This document shows, in pieces, positions 40,075-58,816 of a stretch of 64,000 bases of DNA. The first letter of the stretch is position 1. The number at the start of each line of letters is the position of its first letter. The position numbers were made by a program, and so were the translations under genes. A model generated the notes under the pieces. It ran no database searches. It saw nothing but the letters and a program-made list of their open reading frames with translations, and was not told the origin of the DNA. The DNA is from Dehalococcoidia bacterium (GTDB lineage Bacteria; Chloroflexota; Dehalococcoidia; UBA6926). Location of the stretch: the NCBI GenBank assembly GCA_965237465.1, contig OZ250138.1:155547-219546 (forward strand), written 5' to 3'.

Positions 40075-40089
40075 GCCGGACGAGCGAGG

Positions 40090-41451
40090 GTGCGAAACCG
40101 GCCTTCATCTCAGACAGAGGGCGGAACCCCGGAAGGGGAGCCCCCAGGTTCGTTGCGCCGCGGAAGGCGAAGCTCCATCGGCGGCATGCTCAGCGCCTTT
40201 CAGTATCGTGATTACCGCATCCTGTGGGTCGGCGTCAGCATGCACGCGCTTACGCTCTGGATGGAGATCGTCGCCCGCAGCTGGCTCGTTTGGGAACTCA
40301 CTGGAGACCCCGTTGCTGTCGGCTGGGTCAACTTCTGGCGCACTATCCCCGTCCTCTTCCTCGCCATACCCGCAGGTGTCCTCGCGGACCGACTGAGCCG
40401 CAAGGCCATCCTGGTCACTACGCAGATTGGGATCCTGGCAGTCTATATCGTCCTTGTGGCGCTCCTGTTGCGGGACGCGCTGGAGTTGTGGCAGGTGTAC
40501 ACCCTCTTTGCCGCTCGCGGCGCGATGATCGCCTTCAATCAGCCGGGTCGGCAGGCGCTGATACCAGCCATCGTGGGCCGTGACAAGGTGCCAAACGCCG
40601 TGGCGCTGCAGCAGTTCTCTTTCAACGGCACGCGCATCGTCGCGCCAATAATGACGGGGGTCCTCTTTGAGACGGTGGGGCCTGCGTCCGTGTTCATCAT
40701 TATCGTTGCCCTGGAGTTTGGCATCATCGGCGCGTGGCTCCTGATGAGGTCGTATCCGCATGCGGCCCGCGCCGTGGCCGGGCCGACCGGCATGGCGGGG
40801 GCGTTGCGGGATACGTGGGCGGGACTGCGCTATGTTCGCGGCAACTCATCGATCCTGCTTCTGCTTCTCTTCGGATTGCTCTCCCTCATGTTCCTGCAGC
40901 CGTTCATGGTCCTGTTGCCGGAGATCGCGGACTCCCGATTCGACATCGGCACGGACTGGCTGGTCATGGTTATGAATGATGCCGGCCTCGGGTTCATCAT
41001 CGGGGCGACGCTCTTCGGGACGTTCCTGACGTTCATGGGCATCGGCTCAATCATAGGCCCAACTCTGCTCGCCTACTTGGGAAACGTGCCCAACAAGGGC
41101 GCGCTGATTGTGGGAAGCATGGCCCTAAGCGGAGTCGTTCTTGCCGCGTTGGGAGCCGCGCCGTGGCTGATCCTCGGGTTGGCCGTCATGATCCTTCTCG
41201 GAATGCTCGACTCGAGTCAACGAGTTATCACGAACAGTCTTCTTCTCACACAGACGGACACCGAGTATCACGGGAGGGTCATCAGCCTCTACCTGCTGGA
41301 CAGGGGCTTTGTGCCGATTGGTAGCCTCGTGGCGGGATACATGGGCGCGTATCTCGGACCCGGAGCGGCGCTGGCGATTCTGGGTGGGGCGCTGACCGTG
41401 TCCGTGCTGATCCTGGCCGCAATCAGGCCGAGCTTCCTCCGCGTACGGTAG
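40090..41451 (+). CDS. MFS transporter
   Basis: AGVLADRLSRK, PGRQALIPAIV, EYHGRVIS. Confidence 0.92.
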   Translation: MRNRPSSQTEGGTPEGEPPGSLRRGRRSSIGGMLSAFQYRDYRILWVGVSMHALTLWMEIVARSWLVWELTGDPVAVGWVNFWRTIPVLFLAIPAGVLADRLSRKAILVTTQIGILAVYIVLVALLLRDALELWQVYTLFAARGAMIAFNQPGRQALIPAIVGRDKVPNAVALQQFSFNGTRIVAPIMTGVLFETVGPASVFIIIVALEFGIIGAWLLMRSYPHAARAVAGPTGMAGALRDTWAGLRYVRGNSSILLLLLFGLLSLMFLQPFMVLLPEIADSRFDIGTDWLVMVMNDAGLGFIIGATLFGTFLTFMGIGSIIGPTLLAYLGNVPNKGALIVGSMALSGVVLAALGAAPWLILGLAVMILLGMLDSSQRVITNSLLLTQTDTEYHGRVISLYLLDRGFVPIGSLVAGYMGAYLGPGAALAILGGALTVSVLILAAIRPSFLRVR

Positions 41452-43814: not shown

Positions 43815-44915
43815 ATGAAGGCTGCCGTGCTGAATGTAATAAACACGCCCCTATCTGTGGAGGATGTGCCGATTCCCACGCCACTCGCCGGGGAGGCGCT
43901 GATCAAGATCGCCGCGACAGGCGTGTGCCACACGGACCTGCACGTCATGCGCGGCGAGGTTGCTTTTCCTACGCCCTGCGTCCTAGGCCACGAGACCTCC
44001 GGCACAGTGGAGGCGGTTGGCGACGGCGTGACCAATGTCGCGGTCGGCGACCGCGTTGTGTGCAGCTTCATCATGCCATGCAACGATTGTTCTTACTGCA
44101 AGCGGGGCCGCGATGATCTCTGCGAGACATTCTTCGCCTATAACCGCCTCAAGGGGCAGCTGTACGATGGCCAAACCCGGCTAGCCCGCCACGACGGATC
44201 GCCGCTGGCGATGTACAGCATGGGGGCGCTCGCGGAGTATGCGGTGACGCCTGCCTCCTCCGTGTTCCGACTGCCGGAAGGAATTCCGCTGAACGAAGCG
44301 GCCATTATCGGCTGCAGCGTTTTCACGGCGTATGGCGCGGTTCACAATCAGGCCGCCCTGATGCCGGGCGAGTCCGTGGCTGTTTATGCAGTCGGAGGCG
44401 TCGGAACAAACGTCGTGCAGATTGCCGCAACCGCCGGAGCCGCGCAGGTCATTGCGGTTGACCTCGACGATGCCAAGCTGGAGATGGCGCGGAGCTTTGG
44501 CGCAACGGCGACGATAAACGCTCGCCTCGAGGACCCACCGGAGAGAATTCGCGAAATGACAGCCGGCCGCGGCGCCGACGTCGCCATTGAGGCGCTGGGG
44601 TCGTCACAGACGGTCTTGCAGGCGTTTGGTTCGGTGGCGGACGGAGGTCGCGTCGTGATGATCGGCATCGCCGCCGCGGGAGAGACAGTGTCTTTGGAAA
44701 TCACGCGCATCGTGCGGCGCGGCGTCAGGATCATAGGCTCATACGGTGCTCGGGCAGGCGTGGACATGCCGGAGATCATTCGGCTCGTCGAAGAGGGTGT
44801 CCTGAACGTCGAGCGGCCAATCACCAGGCGATTCCCATTGGAAAACGTGAACGATGCATACGAAGCGCTCGGACGGGGCGAGATCGTTGGACGGGCGCTA
44901 ATCACATTCGAGTGA
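43815..44915 (+). CDS. Zinc-binding alcohol dehydrogenase (MDR family)
   Basis: GVCHTD, LGHE, C..C..C.......C structural zinc, VGGVG; GGAGG RBS. Confidence 0.92.
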   Translation: MKAAVLNVINTPLSVEDVPIPTPLAGEALIKIAATGVCHTDLHVMRGEVAFPTPCVLGHETSGTVEAVGDGVTNVAVGDRVVCSFIMPCNDCSYCKRGRDDLCETFFAYNRLKGQLYDGQTRLARHDGSPLAMYSMGALAEYAVTPASSVFRLPEGIPLNEAAIIGCSVFTAYGAVHNQAALMPGESVAVYAVGGVGTNVVQIAATAGAAQVIAVDLDDAKLEMARSFGATATINARLEDPPERIREMTAGRGADVAIEALGSSQTVLQAFGSVADGGRVVMIGIAAAGETVSLEITRIVRRGVRIIGSYGARAGVDMPEIIRLVEEGVLNVERPITRRFPLENVNDAYEALGRGEIVGRALITFE

Positions 44916-45011
44916 TGTGAATGGCCGCGCCAAGAGCCGCCCATTCGTCGCGCTTGACGGCGAACTGACGTTCTGTTAACCTTTGGCCGAGTCAGGTGAA
45001 GGTGAAAAACT

Positions 45012-46826
45012 GTGCTGTGTGGACTGACAATAGAAAACATTGGCGTCATTGACCGTGTCGTGATCCCGTTTGCCGCCGGTTTCAACGTGCTGACGGGCGA
45101 AACGGGCGCGGGCAAGTCAATTATTGTTGAATCCGTTGGGCTTGCGCTTGGCGCGCGGACGGATGCCTCGTTGCTGCGGGCGGGGGCTCCGGCGGCGCGT
45201 GTCGAGGCGGTATTTGATGTAGAGGCGGGCGAGTTTTCTCTTCCGGAGGAACTGGCTTCCAAGCTCGGTATTCGTGAAAAAGCCGGACGCTTGGCCATTT
45301 GCCTTGTGAGAGAGATTAAGGCCGATGGTCGCGGCGTGTGCACAATCAACGGGCGTCACGTCTCCCTAAAGACCCTGCAGGATGTGGGCCGCCGACTTGT
45401 AGACGCGCATGGTCAACGGCAAACAATGTCGCTGCTGCGCACGTCCGAGCACCGTGAACTTCTGGATCACTATGGCGGCCTCCTTGAGTTGCGTGGCGAG
45501 TATGTCGATGCCCTCCATCGCCTCCGGGCGGCCCGTGCTGAACTGGCCCAGATCCGGCGAGACGAGGATGAGCAAGCTGCGCGCCTCGCGCAACTCACCC
45601 GTGAGCTGCAGGCGATCCGCGACGTGGCGCCCGTCCTCGGTGAGGATGACGTCTTGACCAGGGAACGCACGCGGCTGGCTAACGCGGTGCAGCTGCGGCA
45701 GCTGGCGGGATCAGCGAAGTCATCTCTGGTGGACAATGCGGGCGCAGAGTCATCCGGAGCCGATGCTCTGGCGGAGATGGCTCAAGGCCTCCGCGCCGCC
45801 TCTGAGCTTGATGCCGATCTCAGGCCCTTGCATGAGGCGGCAGAGGCCCTCTGGGAACAGGCTCAGGACATCGCGCAGGCGCTCGGCCGTTACGTGGAGG
45901 ACCTGGATACGGACCCGAACCGCCTTGAGTATGTTGATCAACGCGTTGCAATGATTGATGAGCTAAAGGACAAGCATGGCGGCTCAATTGAGGAGGTCAT
46001 CGCCCACGGGGAGACGGCGGAGGTTGAACTCGAGCAGCTGATAGCTACTCCTGAACGGCGGGCAGCCCTTGAAGAGACTGAGCGCATGCTTGCAGCTGGC
46101 GTAGTAAGCCGAGGAGTGGAGCTGTCGCGAGCGCGGCAAGCGGCGGCAGCGCGGCTGGGCCAGGCTCTTGAGGCCGAAATCGCCGACCTGGCCCTGCCGG
46201 GAGCGCGGGTGGAAGTGCAAGTGACCCCGATGCACGGCGACGCTACCGCGAGCAAGGCCGCAACCGCTCTCGCCTCCGAGATCGCCGATGATGCGGGAGG
46301 CGAGGGACCCTACGGTTTGGATGAGTCCGGCATCGACCATGTTGAGATATTAATTGCCCCCAACGATGGAGAGCCGCTGCGTCCGCTCGTCAAGACTGCC
46401 TCCGGAGGAGAGATGGCGCGCCTAATGCTTGCGCTCAAGAGCGTGCTGGTTCGCGGGGGCGCGCCGACGCTTGTGCTGGATGAGATCGATGTTGGCGTGG
46501 GCGGCCATGTCGGCGCCACGGTCGGTCGCAAGCTCAGCGGCCTGGCTGAGCAGCATCAGGTCATCTGCGTCACGCACCTGCCGCAGGTGGCGAGCTATGC
46601 AAGCCGTCACTTCCGTGTCGTAAAGGGCTCAATGGAGGGCCGTACGATAACGCGCGTTGAACATCTTGCGGATCGGCAGTCGAGGATCGCGGAACTGGCG
46701 CAGATGATCGGCTCTCAATCGGCCTCGGCGCGGCGGAGCGTTGGGGAGATGCTTGACGATGCGCAGCCGGGCGAACCGAACCCGGAAAGCCCCGTGACGC
46801 TGCGACTCCTGGAGGCCGTTGGTTAG
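45012..46826 (+). CDS. recN: DNA repair protein RecN
   Basis: LTGETGAGKS, HGQ, coiled coil, ASGGE..R, DEID.GVGG, VTHLPQVA. Confidence 0.96.
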   Translation: MLCGLTIENIGVIDRVVIPFAAGFNVLTGETGAGKSIIVESVGLALGARTDASLLRAGAPAARVEAVFDVEAGEFSLPEELASKLGIREKAGRLAICLVREIKADGRGVCTINGRHVSLKTLQDVGRRLVDAHGQRQTMSLLRTSEHRELLDHYGGLLELRGEYVDALHRLRAARAELAQIRRDEDEQAARLAQLTRELQAIRDVAPVLGEDDVLTRERTRLANAVQLRQLAGSAKSSLVDNAGAESSGADALAEMAQGLRAASELDADLRPLHEAAEALWEQAQDIAQALGRYVEDLDTDPNRLEYVDQRVAMIDELKDKHGGSIEEVIAHGETAEVELEQLIATPERRAALEETERMLAAGVVSRGVELSRARQAAAARLGQALEAEIADLALPGARVEVQVTPMHGDATASKAATALASEIADDAGGEGPYGLDESGIDHVEILIAPNDGEPLRPLVKTASGGEMARLMLALKSVLVRGGAPTLVLDEIDVGVGGHVGATVGRKLSGLAEQHQVICVTHLPQVASYASRHFRVVKGSMEGRTITRVEHLADRQSRIAELAQMIGSQSASARRSVGEMLDDAQPGEPNPESPVTLRLLEAVG

Positions 46827-46935
46827 CCGCCGTATTGACACAACCGCCCGTGATCACAATCATAGTGACGGCCAAAAGCGTCGCGCCGCACGATGGACAA
46901 ATATCTTTCCAACCAACACGAAAGTCATTACTGGC

Positions 46936-48273
46936 ATGTCATCTCAAACCGAAACCATAGAACGCATCGTGTCCGCGCGGATTCCAACCGCGCACGGCGA
47001 GTTCAGGCTCGACTACTACTCCAACACGGTCGACAACAAGGAACACCTGGCGCTCGTCAAGGGAGACGTCGAAAACGGCGCCGACGTGCTGGTGAGGGTG
47101 CATTCAGAGTGTTTCACTGGCGAAGTGTTGGGATCGCAGCGGTGTGATTGCGCAAGCCAACTGGATGCCGCAACTGAGGCCATCGCCAGGGAAGGCGTTG
47201 GGATCCTGATTTATCTGCGGCAAGAGGGCCGCGGCATCGGTCTGCGGGATAAGCTCCGGGCCTACAACCTCCAGGACGCCGGGTATGACACCGTCGATGC
47301 CAACATCCGGCTCGGCCACGGCGCGGATGATAGGGACTACCGCGTAGCGTCGCTGATCCTGGATGATCTTGGCGTCAGATCGATCCGACTGATGACCAAC
47401 AACCCGACAAAGTTTGACGAAATACGCGCCCTGGGCGTGGACGTAGTTGAGCGTGTCCCCGTTCCTGCGCCAGTTACGGTCCAGAACATGGACTATCTGA
47501 CGACCAAGGTGGAGCGGATGGGCCACATGATGACCTTGGAGACGCCGGAAACTCAGTCCTCAACACCTTTCGCCCAGGATGCGGAACAGCGCGCGCTGGC
47601 GGAAGCCAACCACCGGCCCTTTGTCACGCTGACCTATGCTCAGAGTCTCGACGGCTCCATTGCGGGCGCCGACGCCGTGCCATTGAGCCTGAGCGGATCG
47701 CAGTCCGCCGAAATGACGCATCTCTTGCGGTCAACCAACGACGCAATCCTTGTCGGTATCGGCACTGTAATCGCAGACGACCCGAGGCTGACAGTCAGGC
47801 TGACGGACGGCAAAGACCCGCAGCCCATCATCCTGGACAGCACGCTGCGATGCCCGCTCGACGCAACGCTGTTGGAAAGCTACCGCACGGCCCCGTGGAT
47901 CGCTACCAGAGAGGACGCGCCCATTGAGAGGCAGGTGGAGCTTGAGGCCGTCGGCGCGAGGGTGATCCGGTTGCCCGCGACCGAGCCGAGCGGCTTGGTT
48001 GACCTGCGCGCGCTCATGACGCGGTTGTACGACGAGGGAATTCGCAGCCTGATGGTGGAGGGCGGCGCTCGCGTCATCACGGAAATGCTGGCCAGCCGAT
48101 TCGTCGACCATGTGGTCATCACAGTCGCGCCGAAACTGGTCGGGGGACTGCACGCAGTGACAAACAGCGAGAACGTCGCCGAAGCCGTGTTTCCGCGACT
48201 TGGCAAGCTGGGCTACCAGCGGGCGGGGACGGACCTCGTCGTTTGGGGACGTCCGGATTGGTCCCAGGATTGA
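46936..48273 (+). CDS. ribA: GTP cyclohydrolase II fused to RibD-C (Rib7-like) reductase
   Basis: RVHSEC.TG.....RCDC, QEGRGIGL, TNNP.K; then YAQSLDG, DAILVGIGT..ADDPRL, VEGG. Confidence 0.9.
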   Translation: MSSQTETIERIVSARIPTAHGEFRLDYYSNTVDNKEHLALVKGDVENGADVLVRVHSECFTGEVLGSQRCDCASQLDAATEAIAREGVGILIYLRQEGRGIGLRDKLRAYNLQDAGYDTVDANIRLGHGADDRDYRVASLILDDLGVRSIRLMTNNPTKFDEIRALGVDVVERVPVPAPVTVQNMDYLTTKVERMGHMMTLETPETQSSTPFAQDAEQRALAEANHRPFVTLTYAQSLDGSIAGADAVPLSLSGSQSAEMTHLLRSTNDAILVGIGTVIADDPRLTVRLTDGKDPQPIILDSTLRCPLDATLLESYRTAPWIATREDAPIERQVELEAVGARVIRLPATEPSGLVDLRALMTRLYDEGIRSLMVEGGARVITEMLASRFVDHVVITVAPKLVGGLHAVTNSENVAEAVFPRLGKLGYQRAGTDLVVWGRPDWSQD

Positions 48274-49289
48274 AATCTCGCGTCGTAACCTTTACCGCGC
48301 CCGGGCGCGTGGAGGTCCATGAAGAGACGGTGACCGAGCCCTCGCCGGGCCATGTCTTGGTTCGGACGCGTGCTTCGGCCATCAGCGCCGGCACCGAATT
48401 GCTGGTCTATCGGGGCCAGGCCCCAACCGACATGGCGGCGGATGAATCCATCGCCGCGCTTGGGGGAAACCTTGAGTTTCCTCTTCAGTTCGGATACGCG
48501 GCGGCGGGAGAGATCGCCAAAGTTGGGGTCGGCGTCGACCCTGAGCTGCTTGGACGGCGCGTATTTGCATTCAATCCGCACGCATCGCTGTTTGAGGCCG
48601 TGCCGGAGACCCTGTTGCCCGTGCCGGATGGCGTCTCCTTTGAGGACGCGGCGATGCTGCCGTCTATGGAGACCGCCGTCAACCTCGTGATGGATGGCCG
48701 CCCGATTGTTGGCGAGACCGCTCTGGTCATAGGGCAGGGGGTTATTGGCCTCCTGACGACGGCTCTGCTGGCCCGGATGCCTCTGTCCACTCTTGTCACA
48801 CTTGACGCCCTGGCTGCCCGCCGAGAGGCATCACAGCAACTGGGCGCCACGATGGCGCTCGATGCCGCCGCTCCGGACGCCATGGAGGCTGTTCGCGCCG
48901 CTTTGGGCAATGATGGCGCTGATGTGGCGTTTGAACTGTCCGGCCGGCCTGAGGCGCTAAATGCTGCCCTAGCCGCAACCGGATTCGCCGGGCGGATCGT
49001 CATCGGGTCATGGTACGGAACAAAGACTGCTCCGATTGATCTTGGTGGTCGCTTCCACCGCAGCCGGATTCGACTCATAAACAGCCAGGTGACGACTATC
49101 GCCCCGGAACTGACGGGGCGTTGGACAAAGGAGCGGCGATTCCGCGCTGCGTGGGAGATGATCAGACAGGTTGAACCATCCCAGCTTGTAACGCATCGCT
49201 TTCCGGTGGCCAGGGCCGCGGAGGCGTATCGGCTGCTGGATGAATCACCGCAGGCCGCGTTGCAAGTCCTGCTGACATACGATGATTAG
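48270..49289 (+). CDS. MDR-family dehydrogenase (atypical zinc site)
   Basis: SAISAGTE, FGY, GQGVIG Rossmann motif, SWYG; TTG start overlapping the upstream TGA. Confidence 0.85.
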   Translation: MKSRVVTFTAPGRVEVHEETVTEPSPGHVLVRTRASAISAGTELLVYRGQAPTDMAADESIAALGGNLEFPLQFGYAAAGEIAKVGVGVDPELLGRRVFAFNPHASLFEAVPETLLPVPDGVSFEDAAMLPSMETAVNLVMDGRPIVGETALVIGQGVIGLLTTALLARMPLSTLVTLDALAARREASQQLGATMALDAAAPDAMEAVRAALGNDGADVAFELSGRPEALNAALAATGFAGRIVIGSWYGTKTAPIDLGGRFHRSRIRLINSQVTTIAPELTGRWTKERRFRAAWEMIRQVEPSQLVTHRFPVARAAEAYRLLDESPQAALQVLLTYDD

Positions 49290-49339
49290 AGGGGACGCAG
49301 GCACCGTCCGTGGGAAGGAATCCGGGAACGGGTGAGAGC

Positions 49340-49723
49340 ATGTATTCCGTCGCGGTAACCCAGGGCTTCATTGCGCAGCACTACTTGATTGGCGGCGATT
49401 GGGGGCCGGAGAACAGGCTGAATTCTCACCGGTTTCGGGTGGAGATCAGGCTGGAGGGCGCCACGTTGGACCAGCACGGATACCTCGTGGACATTGTCGT
49501 GATCAAAGAGACCCTTGGGGAGGTCGTCAAGCGCTACAGTGACGTCACCCTCAACGATCTGCCGGAGTTCGCGGGCCTCAACCCAAGCGTGGAGAACTTT
49601 GTGCGCATCCTGAGCGAGTTCATTGAGCAGAGAATCCCAACGGCGACGCTGTCGGTCATGACGGTCAGGCTGTGGGAGGCGGACGACGCGTGGGCCTCAT
49701 ACCGCCGGGAATTTGCGCATTGA
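49340..49723 (+). CDS. 6-pyruvoyl/6-carboxy-tetrahydropterin synthase-like (COG0720 T-fold) protein
   Basis: F.AQH, G..LD..GYLVD, LNDLPEF..NPSVE, WE motifs. Confidence 0.85.
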   Translation: MYSVAVTQGFIAQHYLIGGDWGPENRLNSHRFRVEIRLEGATLDQHGYLVDIVVIKETLGEVVKRYSDVTLNDLPEFAGLNPSVENFVRILSEFIEQRIPTATLSVMTVRLWEADDAWASYRREFAH

Positions 49724-50805
49724 GGGTCGGCCTGGTCATCTACGGAACTCTGGATACCCTCTCGGGTGGATTCCTGTATGACCGCAAGCTGGTGGAGCAT
49801 CTTCGTGAGGCGGGCGATCACGTTGAGATCATCTCAATACCGTGGCGCAACTACGGACTGCATCTGACCGATGCGTTTTCAAGAGCCCTCCGCCGACAGC
49901 TTGAGGCTGCCAACGTCGATGTGATGCTCCAGGATGAGCTGAATCACCCGTCGCTCTTTCGCGTAAATCGAATCCTGCGCGGGCGGTGGCCGATCATATC
50001 CATCGTGCATCACCTCCGTTCCAGCGAGAAACGCGCCGCCTGGAAGAACCGTGCCTACCGAGCCATTGAGTGGCGCTATTTGGCGACCGTCGACGGCTTC
50101 ATATTCAATAGCGAGACGACACGCGATGTTGTTCACGGGCTTGTGGGCGACGCACGTCCCCACGTCGTGGCGTTTCCGGCCGGGGACCGCCTGCAGAGCG
50201 CCGTGACCGAAGAGCGCATTGCATCGCGCGCAAATGAAGATGGTCCCCTCAGGATTCTGTTTCTTGGAAACGTCATTGAGCGGAAGGAGCTGCACGTCCT
50301 GCTGGACGCCGTGTCGCAGATGCGCGATGTGGCTTGGCGGCTGGACGTCGTCGGCGGGCTTGAGGTTGAGCCCGGATACACACATCGGGTCAAGGCTCAA
50401 ACCGGCAGCCTTGGCCTCGACGATCGCGTATCGTTCCACGGGCCACTCATGGACGATGACTTAAGGCGGAGTCTGTCGCATGCTCACGCGCTCGTCGTGC
50501 CGTCATCGTATGAGGGATTTGGAATCGTCTATCTTGAGGCAATGGCGTTCGGCGCGCCTGCGATAGCGACAAGTTCCGGGGCGGCGCACGAGATAATCAG
50601 TCACGGCTCAGATGGATTTCTCATTCCGCCCGGAGACGCGACACGGCTAGCGGCGCATCTCAGGGAGCTTGCCATGAATCGGAATCGCCTGGCGGAGATG
50701 GGCATCGCGGCGCTCCACCGCTTTGCGCGGCATCCGACCTGGGCAGATTCGGCATCAAGTATCCGCGAGTTCTTGGTGAGTGTCACAGGCAGTCACCATG
50801 CCTGA
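49720..50805 (+). CDS. Glycosyltransferase family 4
   Basis: SGGFLYDR, GNVIERK, PS.YEGFGIVYLEAMAFG; TTG start overlapping the upstream stop. Confidence 0.9.
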   Translation: MRVGLVIYGTLDTLSGGFLYDRKLVEHLREAGDHVEIISIPWRNYGLHLTDAFSRALRRQLEAANVDVMLQDELNHPSLFRVNRILRGRWPIISIVHHLRSSEKRAAWKNRAYRAIEWRYLATVDGFIFNSETTRDVVHGLVGDARPHVVAFPAGDRLQSAVTEERIASRANEDGPLRILFLGNVIERKELHVLLDAVSQMRDVAWRLDVVGGLEVEPGYTHRVKAQTGSLGLDDRVSFHGPLMDDDLRRSLSHAHALVVPSSYEGFGIVYLEAMAFGAPAIATSSGAAHEIISHGSDGFLIPPGDATRLAAHLRELAMNRNRLAEMGIAALHRFARHPTWADSASSIREFLVSVTGSHHA

Positions 50806-51685
50806 GCCGCAAGCCTACGACTATGTCCGCTATCTTGCGGCCAAGGCGGCCATTGACGATAGGTCGCTCAACCCCCTTGTCATTGAGGCGCTGCGCCGCA
50901 ACGTGCGTCCTGTGTCAGAAGCACGTCCCCTTTCCGTCATTGAGCTTGGCGCAGGGGTAGGGAGCACCTTTCGCCGACTATATCAAGCTGAGATTGTGAC
51001 GTCGGGCGTGTACAGGATGGTGGACCTCGATCAACGCAGCCTGGATGAGGCCGCGCGAGTCGCGGAGGCCGAGATTGGGCAGGAAGGCCGGGATTCGCTG
51101 CGCGTAGAGATTCACGCATCGGATGCGACAGCGTATCTGCGCGAGGACGCCGTAACGGGTCAGCAAGCGGACTTGATTGTCGCCCAGGCCTTAATTGATA
51201 TGCTGAACGTTCCGATGCTTATCGAGGCGGTTTCCGAACGGCTGAGCCCAGGCGGCCTGCTGTATGCGCCAATTACATTTGACGGCGACACTGCCTTTGA
51301 GCCGGTCATCGAACCTGAGCTAGACGCACGGATCATCGCGGCCTACCACCGGACGATGGACGCGCGCCGCACGCCGGACGGCCTTCCCACCGGCGGCAGC
51401 ACAGCGGGTCGCGCAATGCTGACCGAGCTAAGGCTCGCTGCTATGGAGATCATCGAAGCCGCCGCCTCGGACTGGGTAGTCTTTCCGCGTGCTGGCGGTT
51501 ATTCGGAGGACGAATCGTATTTCCTTCACCACATCGTCAACACGGTGTGGGAGGCGCTGCGCGACGATTCCGAACTCGGCGGCGATAGCCTCGCCGCGTG
51601 GATTAAGGAACGACACGGGCAGATTGAGCGAGGAGAACTGATCTACATCGCGCACCAACTGGACGCGCTTGCCCGCAAGCCTTGA
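50798..51685 (+). CDS. Class I SAM-dependent methyltransferase-like protein
   Basis: YL.AK..IDDRS N-terminus, ELGAGVG, L.PGG, TFDG. Confidence 0.8.
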   Translation: MPEPQAYDYVRYLAAKAAIDDRSLNPLVIEALRRNVRPVSEARPLSVIELGAGVGSTFRRLYQAEIVTSGVYRMVDLDQRSLDEAARVAEAEIGQEGRDSLRVEIHASDATAYLREDAVTGQQADLIVAQALIDMLNVPMLIEAVSERLSPGGLLYAPITFDGDTAFEPVIEPELDARIIAAYHRTMDARRTPDGLPTGGSTAGRAMLTELRLAAMEIIEAAASDWVVFPRAGGYSEDESYFLHHIVNTVWEALRDDSELGGDSLAAWIKERHGQIERGELIYIAHQLDALARKP

Positions 51686-51697
51686 TCCGCCAAATGC

Positions 51698-52681
51698 TTA
51701 GTCGTCGTCGGGCGGCTCATCATCCAGGACAATCATGTCGCCCGCGCCGCGCGCGATAAGGGAGTCGAGTAGACGCTGACCTATGTCGGTTGCCGGCGCT
51801 GAAGGATGGGCCGTCAGCGATTCCCTGAGAACAGTGCTTCCATCAACCGTCGCGGCAAGGGCCTCAATTGACAGCGTGTCGTCGTTAACGGATGCAAGGC
51901 ACGCAAGGGGCGTCCGGCAAAATCCGCCAATCGCCGCAAGAAATGCCCGCTCTGCGTCGGCGGCGACGCGCTCCATTGGATCCTCGGTCATGGCCGCAAT
52001 GGCGCAAGCGTCCGTGTCATCCTCGCGGCATTCGATGCTGATAAAGCCCTGGCCGACGGCTGGCAGCATCACGTCCGGTTGAAGATACTCGGCGATCGCG
52101 TCCTGCATCCCGAGCCGGATGAGGCCCACCGCGGCGAGCACGGCGGCGTCGGCCTCTATGGCGCGCCCTTCGCCTGTTACCTTGCGAATGCGCGTATCCA
52201 CGTTGCCGCGGAGCAGGACTATTTCCAGATCGGGCCTGTGTTCAAGAACCTGCGCGGCGCGGCGTAGGCTGCCGGTTCCCACGCGCGCGCCCGGAGGCAG
52301 GTTTGCGAGAGTGAGACCGTCCCGTGAGACCAGGGCGTCCCGTGGGTCGCCGCGCGGCATAACGGCCGCAAGCGTGTGTCCGGGCGGGAGTCGCGTGGGC
52401 AAGTCCTTGAGGCTGTGTACGGCGAAGTCAATCTCATCGTTGGCCAGGGCGATCTGGATTTCCTTCACAAATACGCCTTGGCCCAGATCCGGTATCGGCG
52501 TGTTGGGCCGACGGTCGGCCGTTGTTTCAATGCCTACGATTTCAAAGGCGATGTCCGGCCGCCTTGTAGCCGCCGCGTTGACGAATATTTCCGTCTGAAT
52601 GATGGCGAGGCGACTGGAACGCGTGCCGACGCGGAATGTGCGCCCGCCGCTCGACGCCGTCACGATGACCTCGCCGCCCAT
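51698..52681 (-). CDS. hemC: Hydroxymethylbilane synthase
   Basis: GTRSSRLA..Q, GVFVKEI, AVHSLKDLP, GTGSLRR, RGNVDTR, GGFC. Confidence 0.96.
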   Translation of the reverse strand: MGGEVIVTASSGGRTFRVGTRSSRLAIIQTEIFVNAAATRRPDIAFEIVGIETTADRRPNTPIPDLGQGVFVKEIQIALANDEIDFAVHSLKDLPTRLPPGHTLAAVMPRGDPRDALVSRDGLTLANLPPGARVGTGSLRRAAQVLEHRPDLEIVLLRGNVDTRIRKVTGEGRAIEADAAVLAAVGLIRLGMQDAIAEYLQPDVMLPAVGQGFISIECREDDTDACAIAAMTEDPMERVAADAERAFLAAIGGFCRTPLACLASVNDDTLSIEALAATVDGSTVLRESLTAHPSAPATDIGQRLLDSLIARGAGDMIVLDDEPPDDD

Positions 52682-54165
52682 TCGAGGGCTGCGTCGATTA
52701 TGCCGTTCGCTGTGTGCGCTGCTGCCTCGACCGCGATCGTCAGGCCCAGAGACTCCGCCGCTCGCGTTGTCGTGGGTCCTGCCGAGATGAATGCTGCGTC
52801 CCTAACCTGAACCGCCGCATTGTCGAGAGCCTCCACCAGGTTGCGCGCTGTTGACGGACTTGTCAGCACGATGGCGTCCACGCCGCGCGAGAGGGCATCA
52901 TTGGCGCGCCGCGCGAGGTCTGGGCCGGGCAACGTCTGGTATGCGATGACGGGCCATGGCGTCAACCCGTGGCCGCGCAGGGCATCCGGGAGCGCGTCAT
53001 CGGCTAGGTCGCCACGCGGCAGCAACACGGTATAGCCAGGTTGTGAGGCGGCCGCCAGGGTCTCGGCAAGGGCGCGTGAATTGAATTGGTCCGGCATGGC
53101 GTCATGGCGAAGGCCAACTCGGGCGAGCGCAGACGCTGTTGCGGGGCCAACGACGGCAAGACGAGCGCCCGCCAGCGCCCGCGAATCCAGGCCGGAGGCC
53201 AGCAGGCGCTTCATGAAATAATCCACGCCGTTGGCGCTGGTGAAGGAGAGCCATTGGAATTCACTTATGCGCTCCAGAGCGGCATCGACCTGCGACCAAT
53301 CGTCCGGCTCGCCAAAGCTGACAGCCGGGATGTGAACAGGTTCCGCGCCGGCGGCGTCCAGCAGCGCGATAAGCTCCGTTGCACGGGTCTCGCCCCTAAG
53401 CGCCATGATTCGCTTGCCGAAGAGCGGTCGCCGCTCGTACCAGGCGATGTCCTCTCTCAAGTGAACCACGTCGCCGCAGATCAAGATAGCAGGAGCGCGG
53501 ACGCCCGCTCGTTGCGCCCTGTCCGCGATTGCTCCGACCGTCGCGACCGTCGTGCGCTGGCGAGATGTCGTACCCCACTCGATGAGCGCGGCGGGCGCCT
53601 CTTCCGGCCAACCCTCTCGGCGCAGTGATTCAACGACGTCTGGCAGCGCACGCACGCCCATCAGGGCGATGACAGTCTCATTAGACGAGACTGTGGTTGA
53701 ATCGCCGTCAAGGCCGCGTTGCCCGGTGATGATGCGGAGCGAAGAAGCGTGACGGCGATCAGTGACGGGGATTCCTGCGTAGGCAGGGGCGGCCAGCGCG
53801 GACGTCACGCCCGGGACGACCTCAAACACGATTCCGGCCGCTGCCAGCGCGCTCGCCTCCTCGCCGCCCCGACCAAAGAGAAACGGGTCGCCGCCCTTCA
53901 GCCGAACAACGGTGTTGCCGGCGCCGGCGCGGTCAATCAACAGGCGGTTTATTTCATCCTGTGTCCTGCCGTCCTGACGCGCCGGATGCTTGCCCACGTC
54001 AGCAAGCTCAGCATCGTCGCGGGCCTCAGCGAGAAGCGAGGGGTTCACCAACCTGTCATAGACGACAACGTCGGCGCGTCGAAGAGCGCGCAGGCCCTTG
54101 ACGGTTATGAGCCCTGGGTCCCCCGGGCCGGCGCCCACAAGGTAGACCCTGCCGTCCTCATTCAC
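52660..54165 (-). CDS. cobA: Uroporphyrinogen-III C-methyltransferase / uroporphyrinogen-III synthase fusion (CobA-HemD)
   Basis: VYLVGAGPGDPGL, VRLKGGDPFLFGRGGEE, then HemD domain FTSANGV, VGPAT, LTSPST. Confidence 0.93.
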   Translation of the reverse strand: MNEDGRVYLVGAGPGDPGLITVKGLRALRRADVVVYDRLVNPSLLAEARDDAELADVGKHPARQDGRTQDEINRLLIDRAGAGNTVVRLKGGDPFLFGRGGEEASALAAAGIVFEVVPGVTSALAAPAYAGIPVTDRRHASSLRIITGQRGLDGDSTTVSSNETVIALMGVRALPDVVESLRREGWPEEAPAALIEWGTTSRQRTTVATVGAIADRAQRAGVRAPAILICGDVVHLREDIAWYERRPLFGKRIMALRGETRATELIALLDAAGAEPVHIPAVSFGEPDDWSQVDAALERISEFQWLSFTSANGVDYFMKRLLASGLDSRALAGARLAVVGPATASALARVGLRHDAMPDQFNSRALAETLAAASQPGYTVLLPRGDLADDALPDALRGHGLTPWPVIAYQTLPGPDLARRANDALSRGVDAIVLTSPSTARNLVEALDNAAVQVRDAAFISAGPTTTRAAESLGLTIAVEAAAHTANGIIDAALEWAARSS

Positions 54166-54799
54166 CGGCCTGATCCGTAAGGAGTCCAAGCAGTCGTGCG
54201 CGAAGTGCCGCAGAGTCTCCGTTGGTGATCAGCGAGCGCGTTTCAGCATCGTCCAGGGCGGCTTGCCAACGCCGGGGTGGCGTTCTTGTCCCAGCAAGTC
54301 GAAGCTCGGCCCGGATGTCCGCAAGGACGTCGATCAGCATCTCATATTCATTGGGCAACGCGCGATCAATCTCACGGCGCAGGAAACCGGCCATTGCGGG
54401 GCTGCGGCCGTTAGTTGAAATCGCTACCGTGGCATCGCCGCGCCGGACAAGGGCAGGGTAGATCCACGTGCAAAGGTCTGTGATGTCGACGACATTGAGG
54501 AGGACGCGCTCTCGCTCGGCCTCGGCGTGGATCTTTTCGCTCAGCGGGCGATCATGCGTCGTCGCTGAGATGGCGAGGAATGCCCCCGCGAGGTCGCCAT
54601 CACGGTAGGACCGAGTATGGAGTGCAATCTCGCGACGCTCGGCCATTTCGGTGAACCGAGGACGATCCTCCGGGCAAATGACAGTCACGTCTGCGCCCGC
54701 GTCCACGAGCGCCCCGGCCTTCATTTGGGCCTCATCATCCTCTCCGATGACGACGCAACGACGGCCGCGCAGATCAAGGTAAATAGGAAAATAGCCCAT
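54158..54799 (-). CDS. Precorrin-2 dehydrogenase / sirohydrochlorin ferrochelatase (CysG N-terminal / SirC-Met8-like)
   Basis: YFPIYLDLRGRRCVVIG, NVVD...C, AIST.GRSP. Confidence 0.9.
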   Translation of the reverse strand: MGYFPIYLDLRGRRCVVIGEDDEAQMKAGALVDAGADVTVICPEDRPRFTEMAERREIALHTRSYRDGDLAGAFLAISATTHDRPLSEKIHAEAERERVLLNVVDITDLCTWIYPALVRRGDATVAISTNGRSPAMAGFLRREIDRALPNEYEMLIDVLADIRAELRLAGTRTPPRRWQAALDDAETRSLITNGDSAALRARLLGLLTDQAGE

Positions 54800-54824
54800 G
54801 AGACCCCGCCTGCCTGCCGCAGCT

Positions 54825-55685
54825 TTATGATCCGGAGGCCGAAACTGATCCGGCCGGCGCCCGCTCTCCGGCGGCAAAGTGGTCCGCCAACGCGATGACC
54901 AGAGGCCCCATCTTTGGGTGCTCCGGCTCTACGTGAGGCGCGATGCCGTGCTCGCGCAAGGCCCGCGAGCATACCGGGCCGACGGATGCAACGACGATAT
55001 CCTCGGCCATCGCATCTTGTAGATCGCGAGCCATGGAGTTGTCATCTGCAATACGCATGAGGTTTCGGACTTGCGATTGCGTTGTGAACATGACGGCGTC
55101 AGCGTCCCGCGCGATGATGCGCCGGATCGCGTCCACCACTGGGGCGGTATCCTCCGGGAGTTCCCACACGTATAGCGACGCTTCCATGACCTCTGCGCCC
55201 ATCGCGACCAGCTCGCTTCTGAGATACGCATTGATCTCGCCGTAGTGCTGTAGTGCGACCCGCTTGCCGCGAAAGTCCCAGCCTGTGTCTTTGACGGCTG
55301 AGACAAGGTCCTCTGACATGAACGGCTCCGGCGCAATGAGGGCAATCGGGATTGAATTCTGGCGCATGACGGCGACGGGCTTGGGGCCCCGGCAGATGAT
55401 CTTTGTATCATGCAACGCTGCCAGGAACTCATCCTTGCGGCCAAGCTCATCCGCAGCATTTATGAGCGCCCGCGCCCCCACTCCCGTTAGGAAAACGGCG
55501 GCTTCCACGGTCCGCCTGCAAATTGCGTCGACCATGTCCTGGACGTCTTGACGCATGGGCAGCGGAACTTCCCGCAGGGCCGGCGCATTCACAGGGTCGC
55601 CGCCATGGCGCGAAACAAGCGCGGCCAACTCCGAGGGCATGCGGCCCTCCAGGACCACGACTCGTCGTCCTCCAAGGTCTGCCAC
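54825..55685 (-). CDS. Stand-alone uroporphyrinogen-III synthase (HemD-like)
   Basis: FLTGVG, RGPKP, Y.W..P, FT...QV, SVGPV, PKMG. Confidence 0.85.
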   Translation of the reverse strand: MADLGGRRVVVLEGRMPSELAALVSRHGGDPVNAPALREVPLPMRQDVQDMVDAICRRTVEAAVFLTGVGARALINAADELGRKDEFLAALHDTKIICRGPKPVAVMRQNSIPIALIAPEPFMSEDLVSAVKDTGWDFRGKRVALQHYGEINAYLRSELVAMGAEVMEASLYVWELPEDTAPVVDAIRRIIARDADAVMFTTQSQVRNLMRIADDNSMARDLQDAMAEDIVVASVGPVCSRALREHGIAPHVEPEHPKMGPLVIALADHFAAGERAPAGSVSASGS

Positions 55686-55734
55686 GCGCGCCTTGCCTCC
55701 GGGCTATGGTTGCGGATTGGTCCCGATCAGATGC

Positions 55735-57537
55735 CTACGTGGCGCACTCGCCCTCGCCGCGCTCCATCATGTACAGAACGGTCTTGTCATAGTCGATGTA
55801 CTGATCAAGGTTCGCCTTGTTCAAGGGACCAACTTCAGCGTACTCCTTGATGACCGCCTCAAAAGGCTCTCGGCCCAGCCGATGGGCAAAGTCCTTGAAG
55901 AGCTCGCCCTCCTGGCGCTCATCCTTGTAGAAACGCAGCACCTTGAAGACGGCCTCGGTTACGCGCTTCGCGGGAATCTTGCCCCGCGGCCTGACGCCGA
56001 AGCGGGTGTCGGCGTTCTCGTGACTGCCGCCCAGGAAGACTTCATAGGCGGGGATCTGTCCGCCCATGGGCCCCTTGATGAATGCGCCGTGGAAGCCAAT
56101 GTCCGAGACGTGATGGCGCCCGCACCCGTTGGGGCAGCCGCTCATCTTGATGTGCATCTGCTTGATAAGGGGATCCTCAAGGAGGCTGGCGTGGCCGTTC
56201 GGATTCCTGACCGCATCCGCGACAGCCTTGTTGAGTCCCATGGATGAGGTGATGCCCAATTTACAGCTATCCGTGCCGGGGCAGGAAGTGACGTCCGTGA
56301 TCTGGTTCATGCCGCCTTCGGCCATATCAAGCGCCTTCAAGTCCTGATATACGTCATACAGGTAGGCGTCGGGCACCCAGCGAAGCATCAGGTTCTGCTC
56401 CGGCGTGGTGCGGATGCGGTAGCTGGCGTGCTGGCGTGAAATCTCGGAGACGCCTCTGAACTGTTCCGGCGAGAGGTCGCCACGCGTCACGGTGATGCCG
56501 ACAAAGTTGTAGCCCTCCTGGGTTTGCGGGATCACGTTGGATTTCCGCCACGCCTGAAAGGCTGCATCGTCCTGGCCGCGAGTCTCCAGGCCCTCCGGGA
56601 GCGCCGGGATGTCCGCCGCCTCATCGTCATGGAAGAGCAGGTAATCGCGATCGGCGTAGTCTTGCGCCCAGTCCTGCTGCAGCTCCTCCTCCACCTGCTG
56701 GCGGAAAGAGTCGATGCCCTCTGTGTGAATGAGGACCTTAATACGGGCCTTCATCTTATTGCGGCGCAGCCATGCGGTGCGATTGAACACGCGGAGCATC
56801 GCCTCCGAGACGCGAAGAAAGTCATCAACGGGGACGAACTCATAGATCGTCTCCGCGATGAGAGGCTGAATCGATGTGCCGCCGCCAACGACGATCTTGA
56901 ATCCCTTGACCTGTTCGCCATTCTCTTCACGGACGCGCGCGACGAATCCAAGGTCATGCATCGTCACGGTTGCGCAATCGTGGTCGCCGCAGGAGAAGGC
57001 GGGCTTCACCTTGCGCGGCATATGGAACGTAAAATCACGCCGGACAAAGTTGCGGACAAAGGCGCCCATGTAAGGCAGAATGTCGAAGGCCTGTTGGGGG
57101 TCGATTCCGGCCATCGGGCAGGCGGTAACGTTGCGGACGGAATTGCCGCATGCTTCCTTGGTGCTCAGGCCGACGTCCTGCAAGAGGTGCATTGCTTTAC
57201 CGGCATCCTCAAGCAGGAGGTGGTGCAACTGGATATTCTCGCGCGTGGTGATGTGGCCCTTGTTTAGCGGGGCGTAGCGCTCGGCAATCTCGCCTATCGC
57301 GTCCCACTGGTCCGCGTGGACAAGCCCGCCCGGGATTTTGATCCGAAACATCTGGGCATCTGACTGTCGCTGTCCGTAAACGCCCAGGCGGAGCCGGAAA
57401 GACATGAATTCGTCTTCGGGAATCTCCCCGTCGCGAAACTCCTTGACCCTTCCTTCATAGTCGGCGATTTCCTCGTCCAGGTACTGGATTATCGAGGGAC
57501 GGGCGGAACGACTACCCGTCTGTGTTGACGTATTCAT
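55735..57537 (-). CDS. sir: Ferredoxin-dependent sulfite (nitrite/sulfite) reductase
   Basis: FRLRLGVYGQRQ, TTRENIQ, CPGTDSC and SGCPNGC siroheme/[4Fe-4S] ligands; lies in sulfate operon. Confidence 0.9.
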   Translation of the reverse strand: MNTSTQTGSRSARPSIIQYLDEEIADYEGRVKEFRDGEIPEDEFMSFRLRLGVYGQRQSDAQMFRIKIPGGLVHADQWDAIGEIAERYAPLNKGHITTRENIQLHHLLLEDAGKAMHLLQDVGLSTKEACGNSVRNVTACPMAGIDPQQAFDILPYMGAFVRNFVRRDFTFHMPRKVKPAFSCGDHDCATVTMHDLGFVARVREENGEQVKGFKIVVGGGTSIQPLIAETIYEFVPVDDFLRVSEAMLRVFNRTAWLRRNKMKARIKVLIHTEGIDSFRQQVEEELQQDWAQDYADRDYLLFHDDEAADIPALPEGLETRGQDDAAFQAWRKSNVIPQTQEGYNFVGITVTRGDLSPEQFRGVSEISRQHASYRIRTTPEQNLMLRWVPDAYLYDVYQDLKALDMAEGGMNQITDVTSCPGTDSCKLGITSSMGLNKAVADAVRNPNGHASLLEDPLIKQMHIKMSGCPNGCGRHHVSDIGFHGAFIKGPMGGQIPAYEVFLGGSHENADTRFGVRPRGKIPAKRVTEAVFKVLRFYKDERQEGELFKDFAHRLGREPFEAVIKEYAEVGPLNKANLDQYIDYDKTVLYMMERGEGECAT

Positions 57538-57634
57538 TGGATCCCCCCTATTGGGCTCTCACACATAGAGTACGCTCGCCAACTATAGAAACTCAAATCG
57601 TTGACGGTGCTATGCCGGAGCCGCCCGACAGCTC

Positions 57635-58816
57635 CTAGCCGCGCGTCGCCTCAATAAGAATCTTCGCAACCTCCGGCCGCGTGAACTCCATCGGCGGAAC
57701 CTGACCGTTGGCAAGCATGTCGCGCACCTGTGTGCCGCTCAGGAGCAAGCGCTCCTCCGGGCCGTGCGGGCAGGTTTTCATGGATGCCATGCCCTCGCAG
57801 CGCTTGCAGAAGAAGGAGTGATCGAAGAAGAGCGGGGTGATGCCCAAATCGGCGGGCGGTATGCTGCGGAGCAGGTCCTGCGCCTCATATGTGCCGTAAT
57901 AGGAACCGACGCCGGCATGATCACGACCGACAATGAAGTGCGTGCAGCCGTAGTTCTTGCGAACGAGGGCGTGGAACACAGCCTCGCGCGGCCCCGCATA
58001 GCGCATGGCGGCGGGTAGAACGGACAGATGCACGCGATCCTCCGGGTAATAGCCGTCAAGCAGCGCCTCATAGCACTTCATTCGGACGTTTGCGGGGATG
58101 TCGTCAGGCTTGGTCTCACCGACCAGAGGGTGGAGCAGGAGGCCGTCCACGATCTCCAGCGCGGCCTTTTGGATGTACTCGTGCGCGCGGTGGACGGGGT
58201 TGCGGGTCTGGAAGCCGACGATTGTCCGCCAACGCCGCTCCGCGAACGCGGCGCGGGTCTGCGCCGGGTCTTCGCGGTAGGGACGCAACTCCGACTCCAG
58301 ATTCTCGCGCTCGATGACGGTGACCGCGCCTCCAATGAGCATTTCGTCCTGGCGGTAGACGGAGGCGACTCCGGGGTGAGCCTCGTCTGTTGTGCCGAAG
58401 ACGTTCTGGGCCTCTTCCTGCTTGTCGTAGGGGTAGACCTCGTCCACGGTCAGGATGCCCAGGTGCCTGCCGGTATGATCCTGGAGCACGACGTCGTCGC
58501 CCAGTTTCAGCCCGCGCGCCGTATCCGCGGGGGCCGACAGGGTGATGGGCAGGCTCCAGAGTGTGCTGTCCGCGAGTCGCATCTCATGCACGGTGCGTTC
58601 GTAGTCGGCCTGGTTCATGAAACCGGTCAGGGGGCTCATTGCGCCGACGGCGATGAGATCCAGATCCGCGGTTTCGCGCAGGCCCAGCGTGATGTGGGTC
58701 AGTTCCGGCGCGCGCTCGCGAATCTCCGTGGCCTGGTCCGGGGACGCGAATCGGTCGACCAACGTTCCGCCGTGCGGGGCGATGGCGTATGTGGGTTCTG
58801 CGGTAAGTGTTGCCAT
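57635..58816 (-). CDS. sat: Sulfate adenylyltransferase
   Basis: PHGGTLV, FQTRNPVHRAHE, MRYAGPREA, GRDHAG, SGT.VR. Confidence 0.97.
   Translation of the reverse strand: MATLTAEPTYAIAPHGGTLVDRFASPDQATEIRERAPELTHITLGLRETADLDLIAVGAMSPLTGFMNQADYERTVHEMRLADSTLWSLPITLSAPADTARGLKLGDDVVLQDHTGRHLGILTVDEVYPYDKQEEAQNVFGTTDEAHPGVASVYRQDEMLIGGAVTVIERENLESELRPYREDPAQTRAAFAERRWRTIVGFQTRNPVHRAHEYIQKAALEIVDGLLLHPLVGETKPDDIPANVRMKCYEALLDGYYPEDRVHLSVLPAAMRYAGPREAVFHALVRKNYGCTHFIVGRDHAGVGSYYGTYEAQDLLRSIPPADLGITPLFFDHSFFCKRCEGMASMKTCPHGPEERLLLSGTQVRDMLANGQVPPMEFTRPEVAKILIEATRG

Follow-up and report, generated by a model that had tools for sequence, protein, structure and literature searches.

What would a bacterium make that, besides a complete riboflavin operon, carries another GTP cyclohydrolase II, fused to a pyrimidine reductase and followed by genes for a dehydrogenase, a T-fold protein, a glycosyltransferase and a methyltransferase? 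This question is raised by a 64,000-nucleotide (nt) stretch of a marine Dehalococcoidia genome (contig OZ250138.1), hereafter the window, in which five intact genes of the same orientation, G1 to G5, occupy 4.75 kb of the plus strand (46936-51685). Coordinates are positions in the window, except those prefixed C1, which are positions on the contig. A first-pass annotation had noted five co-oriented genes with three of four junctions overlapping, which the gene coordinates confirm, and had read them as a pathway to a glycosylated or methylated, pterin- or lumazine-like product. We found that its observations hold and that its interpretation is supported in part, a lumazine-like product being the less likely option. 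On balance, the sequence evidence tips modestly toward a self-contained, translationally coupled operon that would produce a GTP-derived secondary cofactor or metabolite beside riboflavin synthesis.

Known pathways in the genome

The genome consists of one contig of 1.99 Mb, with an estimated completeness of 93%. A complete bacterial riboflavin operon, comprising ribD (PF00383 and PF01872), ribE, ribBA and ribH, is located at C1:1382743-1386355, and its ribBA, ~1.18 Mb away from the cluster, gives the only PF00925 match in the genome other than that of G1. The fusion is thus not the sole ribA/ribD of this genome, in agreement with the expectation of the first-pass annotation that a separate canonical operon exists. 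FolE is encoded ~91 kb before the start of the window, and FolB is present in the genome as well. No QueC was detected in the genome above the cut-off, and CofE and CofH were not found there. Given this inventory, the cluster does not supply a missing part of riboflavin, folate, queuosine or F420 synthesis. A frame of 401 amino acids (aa) on the minus strand contains a sub-threshold QueC match (31159-31251; C1:186705-186797) that covers the first 32 profile positions (E = 5.6e-4); this frame probably encodes another PP-loop ATPase.

Distribution and conservation of the cluster

A pattern was scanned against one genome for each species and yielded at least 600 matches, and the best 80 loci were kept for neighborhood comparison. 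A relative of G3 is encoded in at least 595 species genomes (595 of the 600 matches listed), so that the cluster is not the rare orphan it had seemed. The best 80 loci are mostly from Chloroflexota (Dehalococcoidia, Anaerolineae, Caldilineaceae), and a few are labelled Saccharospirillum, Desulfobacterales, Calditrichia or Phycisphaeraceae. A relative of G4 is found in 76 of these 80 loci, nearly always immediately 3' of G3. The full domain content was counted in the 58 loci with at least 3 kb of upstream and at least 2.5 kb of downstream sequence: 36 of them contain the complete set of six, colinear on one strand in 33, and the other 22 lack one or more parts within the locus. Because the six domains recur in 36/58 related loci, the adjacency of the five genes is not due to chance, and the first-pass annotation was right to treat the other genes as partners of the fusion. 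Within the phylum, a close relative of G3 was detected in 18 of 301 sampled genomes, 12 of the 18 belonging to one family. No relatives were found on viral contigs, and none of the five proteins matched a PADLOC family.

The cyclohydrolase-reductase fusion

Residues 9-175 of G1 match PF00925, GTP_cyclohydro2 (E = 8e-68; 227.6 bits, cut-off 23.3), G1 scores 247.3 bits against TIGR00505 (cut-off 205.85), and residues 228-435 match PF01872, RibD_C (E = 5e-46). According to Pfam, there is no deaminase domain in G1; the RibD part consists of the reductase only, as had been read from the translation. The N-terminal half (G1a) aligns over its full length with Escherichia coli RibA (2bz0) and shares 51% identity with the RibA domain encoded elsewhere in the genome. 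The three zinc-binding cysteines are kept, together with the tyrosine at the position of residue 105, which we take to be needed for formate release; each of the 49 sequences aligned (G1, the genome's own RibBA and 47 loci) has these four residues. With the tyrosine kept, G1a would be a classical cyclohydrolase that makes a separate formamidase unnecessary, and no creatininase-type formamidase was found in the genome.

The reductase half (G1b) has Thr at the site of Bacillus subtilis RibG Lys151 (E. coli RibD Lys152). In the 52 cluster sequences compared, this site is occupied by Ser (25), Thr (17), Ala (5), Asn (4) or Cys (1); the RibD of the genome's own, bacterial-type riboflavin pathway has Lys. 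According to PMC3631187, this site governs the preference between 2,5-diamino-6-ribosylamino-4(3H)-pyrimidinone 5'-phosphate (DAROPP) and 5-amino-6-ribosylamino-2,4(1H,3H)-pyrimidinedione 5'-phosphate (AROPP); fungi have Thr there and archaea Asn, and the T35K substitution at Thr35 of yeast RIB7 moves the preference from DAROPP to AROPP. The GIGTxxxD and EGG motifs of G1b match the NADPH/catalytic motif of yeast RIB7 described in the same paper. Since Thr occupies the Lys151 site as in fungal Rib7, G1b appears to be a Rib7-type reductase, as the first-pass annotation had it, and should accept the undeaminated product of the cyclohydrolase. The classical residues of the cyclohydrolase, combined with the Rib7-type residues of the reductase, suggest that the 2-amino group is probably retained.

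The two domains are fused in 28 of 45 loci and encoded by two genes in 17. It should be noted that in four Anaerolineae-type loci (L016, L020, L022 and L045) the RibD_C gene is placed after the methyltransferase gene, not after the cyclohydrolase gene; its product is 31-33% identical to G1b, and its specificity site is occupied by Asn, as in archaea.

The T-fold protein

G3 matches PF01242, PTPS (E = 3e-24), and is the sole match to this family in the genome. It contains the motif E24-x3-N28-x-H30 (ExxxNSH), as well as H14 and E113, the latter presumably at the position of the Glu that anchors the 2-amino-4-oxo ring. The closest solved relative is Streptomyces coelicolor SCO6650 (3d7j; phmmer E = 1.9e-12, profile E = 1.1e-18), and the structure model of G3 (mean predicted local distance difference test score, pLDDT, 89) is a T-fold with a Foldseek template-modeling (TM) score of 0.84 to 3d7j. 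SCO6650 reportedly binds no zinc and lacks PTPS activity.

In register with E. coli QueD, E24 falls on residue 27 of CxxxHGH, and N28-S29-H30 fall on HGH. G3 shares with QueD and PTPS-III the fold, the first His and the position of the pterin-anchoring Glu; the Asp-His dyad of QueD is not conserved. PMC5041015 gives CxxxHGH as the motif of QueD (PTPS-I) and ExxHGH as that of PTPS-III, so that G3 resembles PTPS-III and Plasmodium PTPS (E37, termed the 'catalytic residue') in having a Glu base in place of Cys. In contrast to PTPS-III, the Glu of G3 lies four, not three, residues before the first His position, which is occupied by Asn. Two candidate roles were rejected on these grounds. A QueD role in queuosine synthesis does not apply, because CxxxHGH is absent and QueC was not found in the genome above the cut-off, and the folate bypass of PTPS-III does not apply either, because ExxHGH is absent, the Glu being one residue further off, and FolB is present.

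Among 110 diverse representatives of the G3 family, the motif reads ExxxHxH in 87, ExxxNxH in six (including G3) and CxxxHxH in four, and H14, D51 and E113 are conserved in 106, 101 and 98 of the 110, respectively. In PMC5445326, FGPAQ is quoted as the PTPS-IV signature, and PF00925 and PF01872 genes are included in the PTPS-IV neighborhood. The signature is absent from G3: SCO6650 reads FGPAQ..HGA, whereas G3 has WGPEN followed by NSH, most of the family has GxE..HxH, with Glu at the A position of FGPAQ in 95 of 110 representatives, so that here the Glu is accompanied by two or three His. The link to PTPS-IV drawn by the first-pass annotation therefore stands as far as the closest solved relative and the adjoining PF00925 and PF01872 domains are concerned, and fails on the signature. 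By its sequence, the G3 family is related to PTPS-IV without having the published signature, and ExxxHxH would define a subgroup.

The dehydrogenase, the glycosyltransferase and the methyltransferase

G2 has the fold of the medium-chain dehydrogenases/reductases (MDR; ADH_zinc_N), with GxGxxG kept; among proteins of solved structure, it comes closest to butanediol, threonine, sorbitol, xylitol and arabinitol dehydrogenases. In the alignment with 6ie0, Ala, Tyr and Ala of G2 take the places of the catalytic-zinc Cys, His and Glu, and G2 is thus not of the zinc-dependent MDR type. Many Arg, Lys and His residues are conserved in the G2 family (59 sequences); these basic residues would fit an anionic substrate.

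G4 is a member of PF00534, Glycos_transf_1 (E = 3e-35, 121.5 bits); of 72 G4-type sequences compared, at least 95% keep E281-x7-E289 and R204/K205. Its matches in the PDB are confined to the donor-binding half and include the sucrose-phosphate-synthase-like Tll1590, the tetrahydrobiopterin (BH4) glucosyltransferase 5ze7, MshA and BshA; that to 5ze7 is limited to residues 143-312 (E = 9.6e-13) and is comparable to those of MshA and the sucrose-phosphate-synthase-like proteins. There is also a weak match to PF20706, 'GT4 in conflict systems' (E = 5e-10). G5 gives only sub-threshold matches to Methyltransf_12, Methyltransf_23 and Methyltransf_25 and belongs to no NCBIfam family; motif I of the S-adenosylmethionine (SAM) site (ExGxGxG) is conserved (G57, G59, G61), and the matches listed in a fold search with its model (pLDDT 92.5) were generic methyltransferase folds only, with TM scores of at most 0.56. 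Neither the fold search with G5 nor the sequence search with G4 gave a hint of the acceptor.

A lipid module in some related loci

Accessory genes emerged when every open frame in the 80 loci was clustered. Three extras recur: a CDP-OH_P_transf protein of ~400 aa (22/80), an MprF-flippase-like LPG_synthase_TM protein (26/80) and a small DUF7475 protein (20/80). For example, the cluster is accompanied by a CDP-alcohol phosphatidyltransferase, LPG_synthase_TM and DUF7475 at L021:2922-5516 and L038:3332-5592 (Anaerolineae, Caldilineaceae) and at L071:8373-10255 (Saccharospirillum alexandrii LZ-5); in the last of these loci the frames for the transferase and the flippase-like protein overlap, perhaps as a single fused gene.

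This module, which the first-pass annotation had missed in relatives, is missing in the present genome. A BLASTP search of the genome's entire set of open frames with ten accessory proteins found no match for the flippase-like and DUF7475 proteins and otherwise gave only two weak matches (E = 2.5e-4 and 5.4e-4), both to a housekeeping CDP-alcohol transferase of 222 aa that is encoded 135 kb away. No CDP-OH_P_transf (~400 aa) or LPG_synthase_TM gene lies beside the cluster, and no membrane domain is predicted by Pfam in the five cluster proteins. The close Dehalococcoidia relatives that share the synteny also lack the module. By the BLASTP result, the genome holds the soluble core only.

The proposed pathway and its alternatives

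If these assignments are correct, the N-terminal half of G1 would convert GTP to DAROPP, and the RibD_C half, being of the Rib7/archaeal type, would reduce DAROPP to 2,5-diamino-6-ribitylamino-pyrimidinone 5'-phosphate, with the 2-amino group kept; both steps are supported by specificity residues. The fusion would keep the intermediate from the housekeeping RibD. Further on, the NAD-type G2 may oxidize one of the secondary hydroxyls on the phosphoribityl chain, C2' being the most plausible site, in which case the 5-amino group would close a 7,8-dihydropterin ring with a phosphorylated trihydroxypropyl side chain. G3 might then hold the 2-amino-4-oxo ring by Glu113, while His14 and His30, Asn28 (His in most relatives) and Glu24, in the place of the QueD Cys, would rearrange or shorten the side chain. 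A sugar would be added by G4 and a methyl group by G5. The end product in the present genome would be a soluble methylated glycoside; in other lineages, the CDP-alcohol phosphatidyltransferase and the flippase-like protein would probably attach it to a membrane lipid. A lumazine-type (2-oxo) product seems less likely, because there is no deaminase in the cluster, the reductase belongs with those that act on 2-amino substrates and the Glu of the T-fold protein is kept.

Several points weigh against this scheme. By the sequence, only its first two steps draw on specificity residues; for the site of oxidation by G2, the ring closure, the reaction of G3, the sugar and the acceptor of the methyl group, the scheme is inferred. 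A zinc-less MDR such as G2 can be a C=C or C=N reductase, not an alcohol dehydrogenase, and the similarities of G4 and G5 are generic. G3 could be a binding or carrier protein, given the Asn at one metal-ligand position, the loss of the Asp-His dyad and the reported inactivity of SCO6650. In net terms, reduction followed by re-oxidation at C2' equals the Amadori step of GTP cyclohydrolase I, and this route looks redundant because the genome already has FolE. Most biological pterins start from GTP cyclohydrolase I (2026 review, PMC13259868), so that entry through cyclohydrolase II would be unusual. Finally, the patchy distribution (18/301) is more in keeping with an accessory metabolite than with an essential cofactor.

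The most specific form of the proposal is tentative, and we hold it to be improbable as a whole: the cluster may be a pterin route without GTP cyclohydrolase I, in which the cyclohydrolase II, the Rib7-type reductase and the zinc-less dehydrogenase together regenerate the 2'-keto amine and bring about closure of the pterin ring, and an undescribed Glu-type T-fold enzyme (ExxxHxH) remodels the side chain, and the methylated pterin glycoside may be a new cofactor or photoprotectant that in many bacteria is mounted on a phospholipid. We know of no precedent for a pterin head group on a phospholipid.

Among the alternatives, the best survivor, itself rather unlikely, is that the ring is never closed: the ribityl-diaminopyrimidinone would be glycosylated on its ribityl chain and then methylated, with G2 acting as a reductase or sugar modifier, and G3 binding or presenting the pyrimidine. 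The same features of G3 that point to a binding role speak for this possibility, as do the loss of the zinc ligands in G2 and the matches of G4 to MshA and BshA, the acceptors of which are small polyol or acid molecules. However, the strong conservation of E24, H30, H14 and E113 over the 110 representatives argues for catalysis over mere binding, G2 has an NAD-type GxGxxG and polyol-dehydrogenase relatives, and free 5-amino-pyrimidines of this type are generally unstable and reactive.

Somewhat more doubtful is an envelope function, in which the GTP-derived glycoside would be a head group or surface decoration, linked to lipid and flipped outward, in the present genome through housekeeping enzymes encoded elsewhere. 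The recurrence of the three accessory families in 20 to 26 of the 80 related loci is consistent with such a role. Conversely, the flippase-like and DUF7475 proteins were not found in this genome, the CDP-alcohol transferase matches are weak, the syntenic close relatives also lack the module, and the five proteins contain no membrane domain predicted by Pfam.

That the cluster serves as a reserve or alternative source of precursors for riboflavin or F420 is highly improbable and, for the present genome, largely refuted. PTPS-IV is said, in PMC5041015, to be involved in archaeal F420 synthesis, with unpublished work cited, and the 51% identity of G1a to the genome's own RibA domain would also suit this role; nevertheless, there is no deaminase in the cluster, the canonical riboflavin operon is complete, the glycosyltransferase and the methyltransferase have no role in either pathway, and the F420 role cannot hold here because CofE and CofH were not found in the single-contig, ~93% complete genome. 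Equally remote is a toxoflavin-like or other azapteridine antibiotic, or an anti-phage system using a modified nucleotide: toxoflavin synthesis likewise begins with GTP cyclohydrolase II, a RibD homologue and a methyltransferase, and G4 has its weak match to PF20706, but Pfam revealed no deaminase and no ToxC- or ToxD-like genes, there is no PADLOC match or viral-contig relative, and the genes sit in a conserved housekeeping neighborhood.

Gene layout and flanking genes

The coordinates of the five genes and of a promoter-like site are given in Table 1. The site has 10 of 12 matches, and the region contains three such sites in total, compared to 1.6 +/- 1.2 in shuffled sequences; this is weak evidence of a promoter. 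An Rfam search of 44500-52500 revealed no riboswitch (one chance-level match, E = 0.78), and no Rfam families were found at the canonical riboflavin operon; hence, a flavin mononucleotide (FMN) riboswitch is unable to distinguish the two loci.

Table 1. Genes of the cluster and the upstream promoter-like site (window coordinates).
Feature	Position	Strand	Description
G1	46936..48273	+	GTP cyclohydrolase II + RibD_C pyrimidine reductase fusion; Pfam domains
G2	48270..49289	+	zinc-less MDR dehydrogenase/reductase, polyol-dehydrogenase branch; alternative TTG starts 48243, 48258
G3	49340..49723	+	T-fold (PTPS/QueD, COG0720) protein, 127 aa; PF01242
G4	49720..50805	+	GT4 retaining-type glycosyltransferase; Glycos_transf_1
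G5	50798..51685	+	class I SAM-dependent small-molecule methyltransferase, family-specific cap domain
Promoter-like site TTGACA-17-AATCAT	46835..46863	+	in the 109-nt recN-G1 gap

The start of G2 is one of three TTG codons (48243, 48258 or 48270), and the overlap with G1 is accordingly 4-31 nt, the shortest being a TTGA start/stop overlap. The start of G3 was assigned to the ATG at 49340, where the orthologues begin (MY[ST]V), rather than to the GTG at 49310; this leaves a 50-nt gap after G2, with a GGTGAG-like ribosome-binding site. The G3/G4 junction is again a TTGA overlap, and G4 and G5 overlap by 8 nt (ATGCCTGA). The G1/G2 (48270-48273) and G3/G4 (49720-49723) junctions have an identical ATTGA arrangement, with the TTG start on the preceding TGA stop; such TTG starts would escape gene callers that accept ATG only.

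Between 38.7 and 58.8 kb, the neighbors are two transporters of the major facilitator superfamily (MFS), tsaE, tsaB, a methyltransferase gene, a Zn-ADH gene and recN upstream of the cluster, and convergent genes from hemC onward downstream, including cobA-hemD, sirohaem genes, sulfite reductase and ATP sulfurylase. As had been noted before, these neighbors include no rib, que or fol genes. The downstream block (51698-58816, minus strand) encodes HemC, a CobA-HemD fusion, a sirohaem synthase-like NAD-binding protein, a second HemD-like protein, a sulfite/nitrite reductase and ATP sulfurylase, i.e., sirohaem synthesis and assimilatory sulfate reduction, and its gene order is kept in locus L003. 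The two adjoining transporters (38707-41451) are of the MFS_3 type ('transmembrane secretion effector') and have N-terminal tails rich in Arg, Gly and Pro; they are not conserved beside the cluster in other lineages and are therefore not counted as its members.

The recN...hemC synteny around the cluster is common to close relatives. In a more distant Dehalococcoidia genome (L014), the same five genes have unrelated flanks (amidohydrolase, cyclase, short-chain dehydrogenases/reductases (SDRs), IS110 transposase), which suggests that the five genes move as a unit; the comparison of the L014 flanks revealed no further conserved partner gene. The IS110-family transposase gene (L014:12528-13757) is located ~2 kb downstream of the cluster in this 2.9-Mb genome, and fits a patchy, possibly mobile distribution.

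Comparison with known systems and significance

The SCO6650/PTPS-IV neighborhood has been noted since 2006-2012, and the S. coelicolor locus SCO6650-SCO6655 is the nearest likeness of the present cluster, with the best solved relative of G3 and with PF00925 and PF01872 in the neighborhood. The two differ in the motifs of the T-fold protein described above and in the cyclohydrolase, which keeps the Tyr here, whereas SCO6655 is said to have Met in its place and to stop at the formylated product. The present cluster is also compact and fused, it has no membrane genes, and it comes without a creatininase-type formamidase in the genome as searched. According to a 2026 review (PMC13151069), the third RibA homologue of S. 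coelicolor has a function unrelated to flavin synthesis.

The entry resembles the fungal and archaeal riboflavin route (Rib1, Rib7/ArfC), in which reduction precedes deamination, with a classical cyclohydrolase, the Thr of yeast RIB7 and the G-x-G-T-x3-D and E-G-G motifs. Unlike in that route, no deaminase, lumazine synthase or riboflavin synthase follows, and the fused genes are coupled to those for the dehydrogenase, the T-fold protein, the glycosyltransferase and the methyltransferase. The later part resembles the synthesis of the pteridine glycosides of cyanobacteria and Chlorobium (cyanopterin, biopterin glucoside, tepidopterin), which leads from GTP through a T-fold enzyme and an oxidoreductase to a GT-B glycosyltransferase; there, however, the entry is GTP cyclohydrolase I, not GTP cyclohydrolase II with a ribityl-forming reductase, and the oxidoreductase is an SDR (sepiapterin reductase), not an MDR. 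A precedent for a methylated pterin glycoside is cyanopterin, a 6-hydroxymethylpterin with 4-O-methylglucuronyl-galactose (PMC3546692).

Full-text literature searches found no paper that names the product of such a gene set, in line with the statement of the first-pass annotation that no product is established. Represented in at least 595 species genomes, this pathway ranks among the more widespread orphans that branch from a vitamin pathway, and the present locus is its smallest clean form among the loci compared: five soluble proteins encoded in 4.75 kb, the first two enzymes being fused. What it adds is this compact soluble form, the evidence for the 2-amino group, the classical cyclohydrolase and the definition of the ExxxHxH subgroup. 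Retention of the 2-amino group would narrow the chemistry to guanine-face (pterin or diaminopyrimidinone) products and argues against flavins and lumazines. Owing to the compact soluble form, the classical cyclohydrolase and the missing membrane module, reconstitution in vitro and heterologous expression should be straightforward. The cluster, a compact form of a recognized cluster type, is thus a convenient minimal system for solving the pathway. Intermediates of this kind are related to the riboflavin-pathway compounds sensed by MAIT (mucosal-associated invariant T) cells, and the product may therefore be of interest beyond microbiology.

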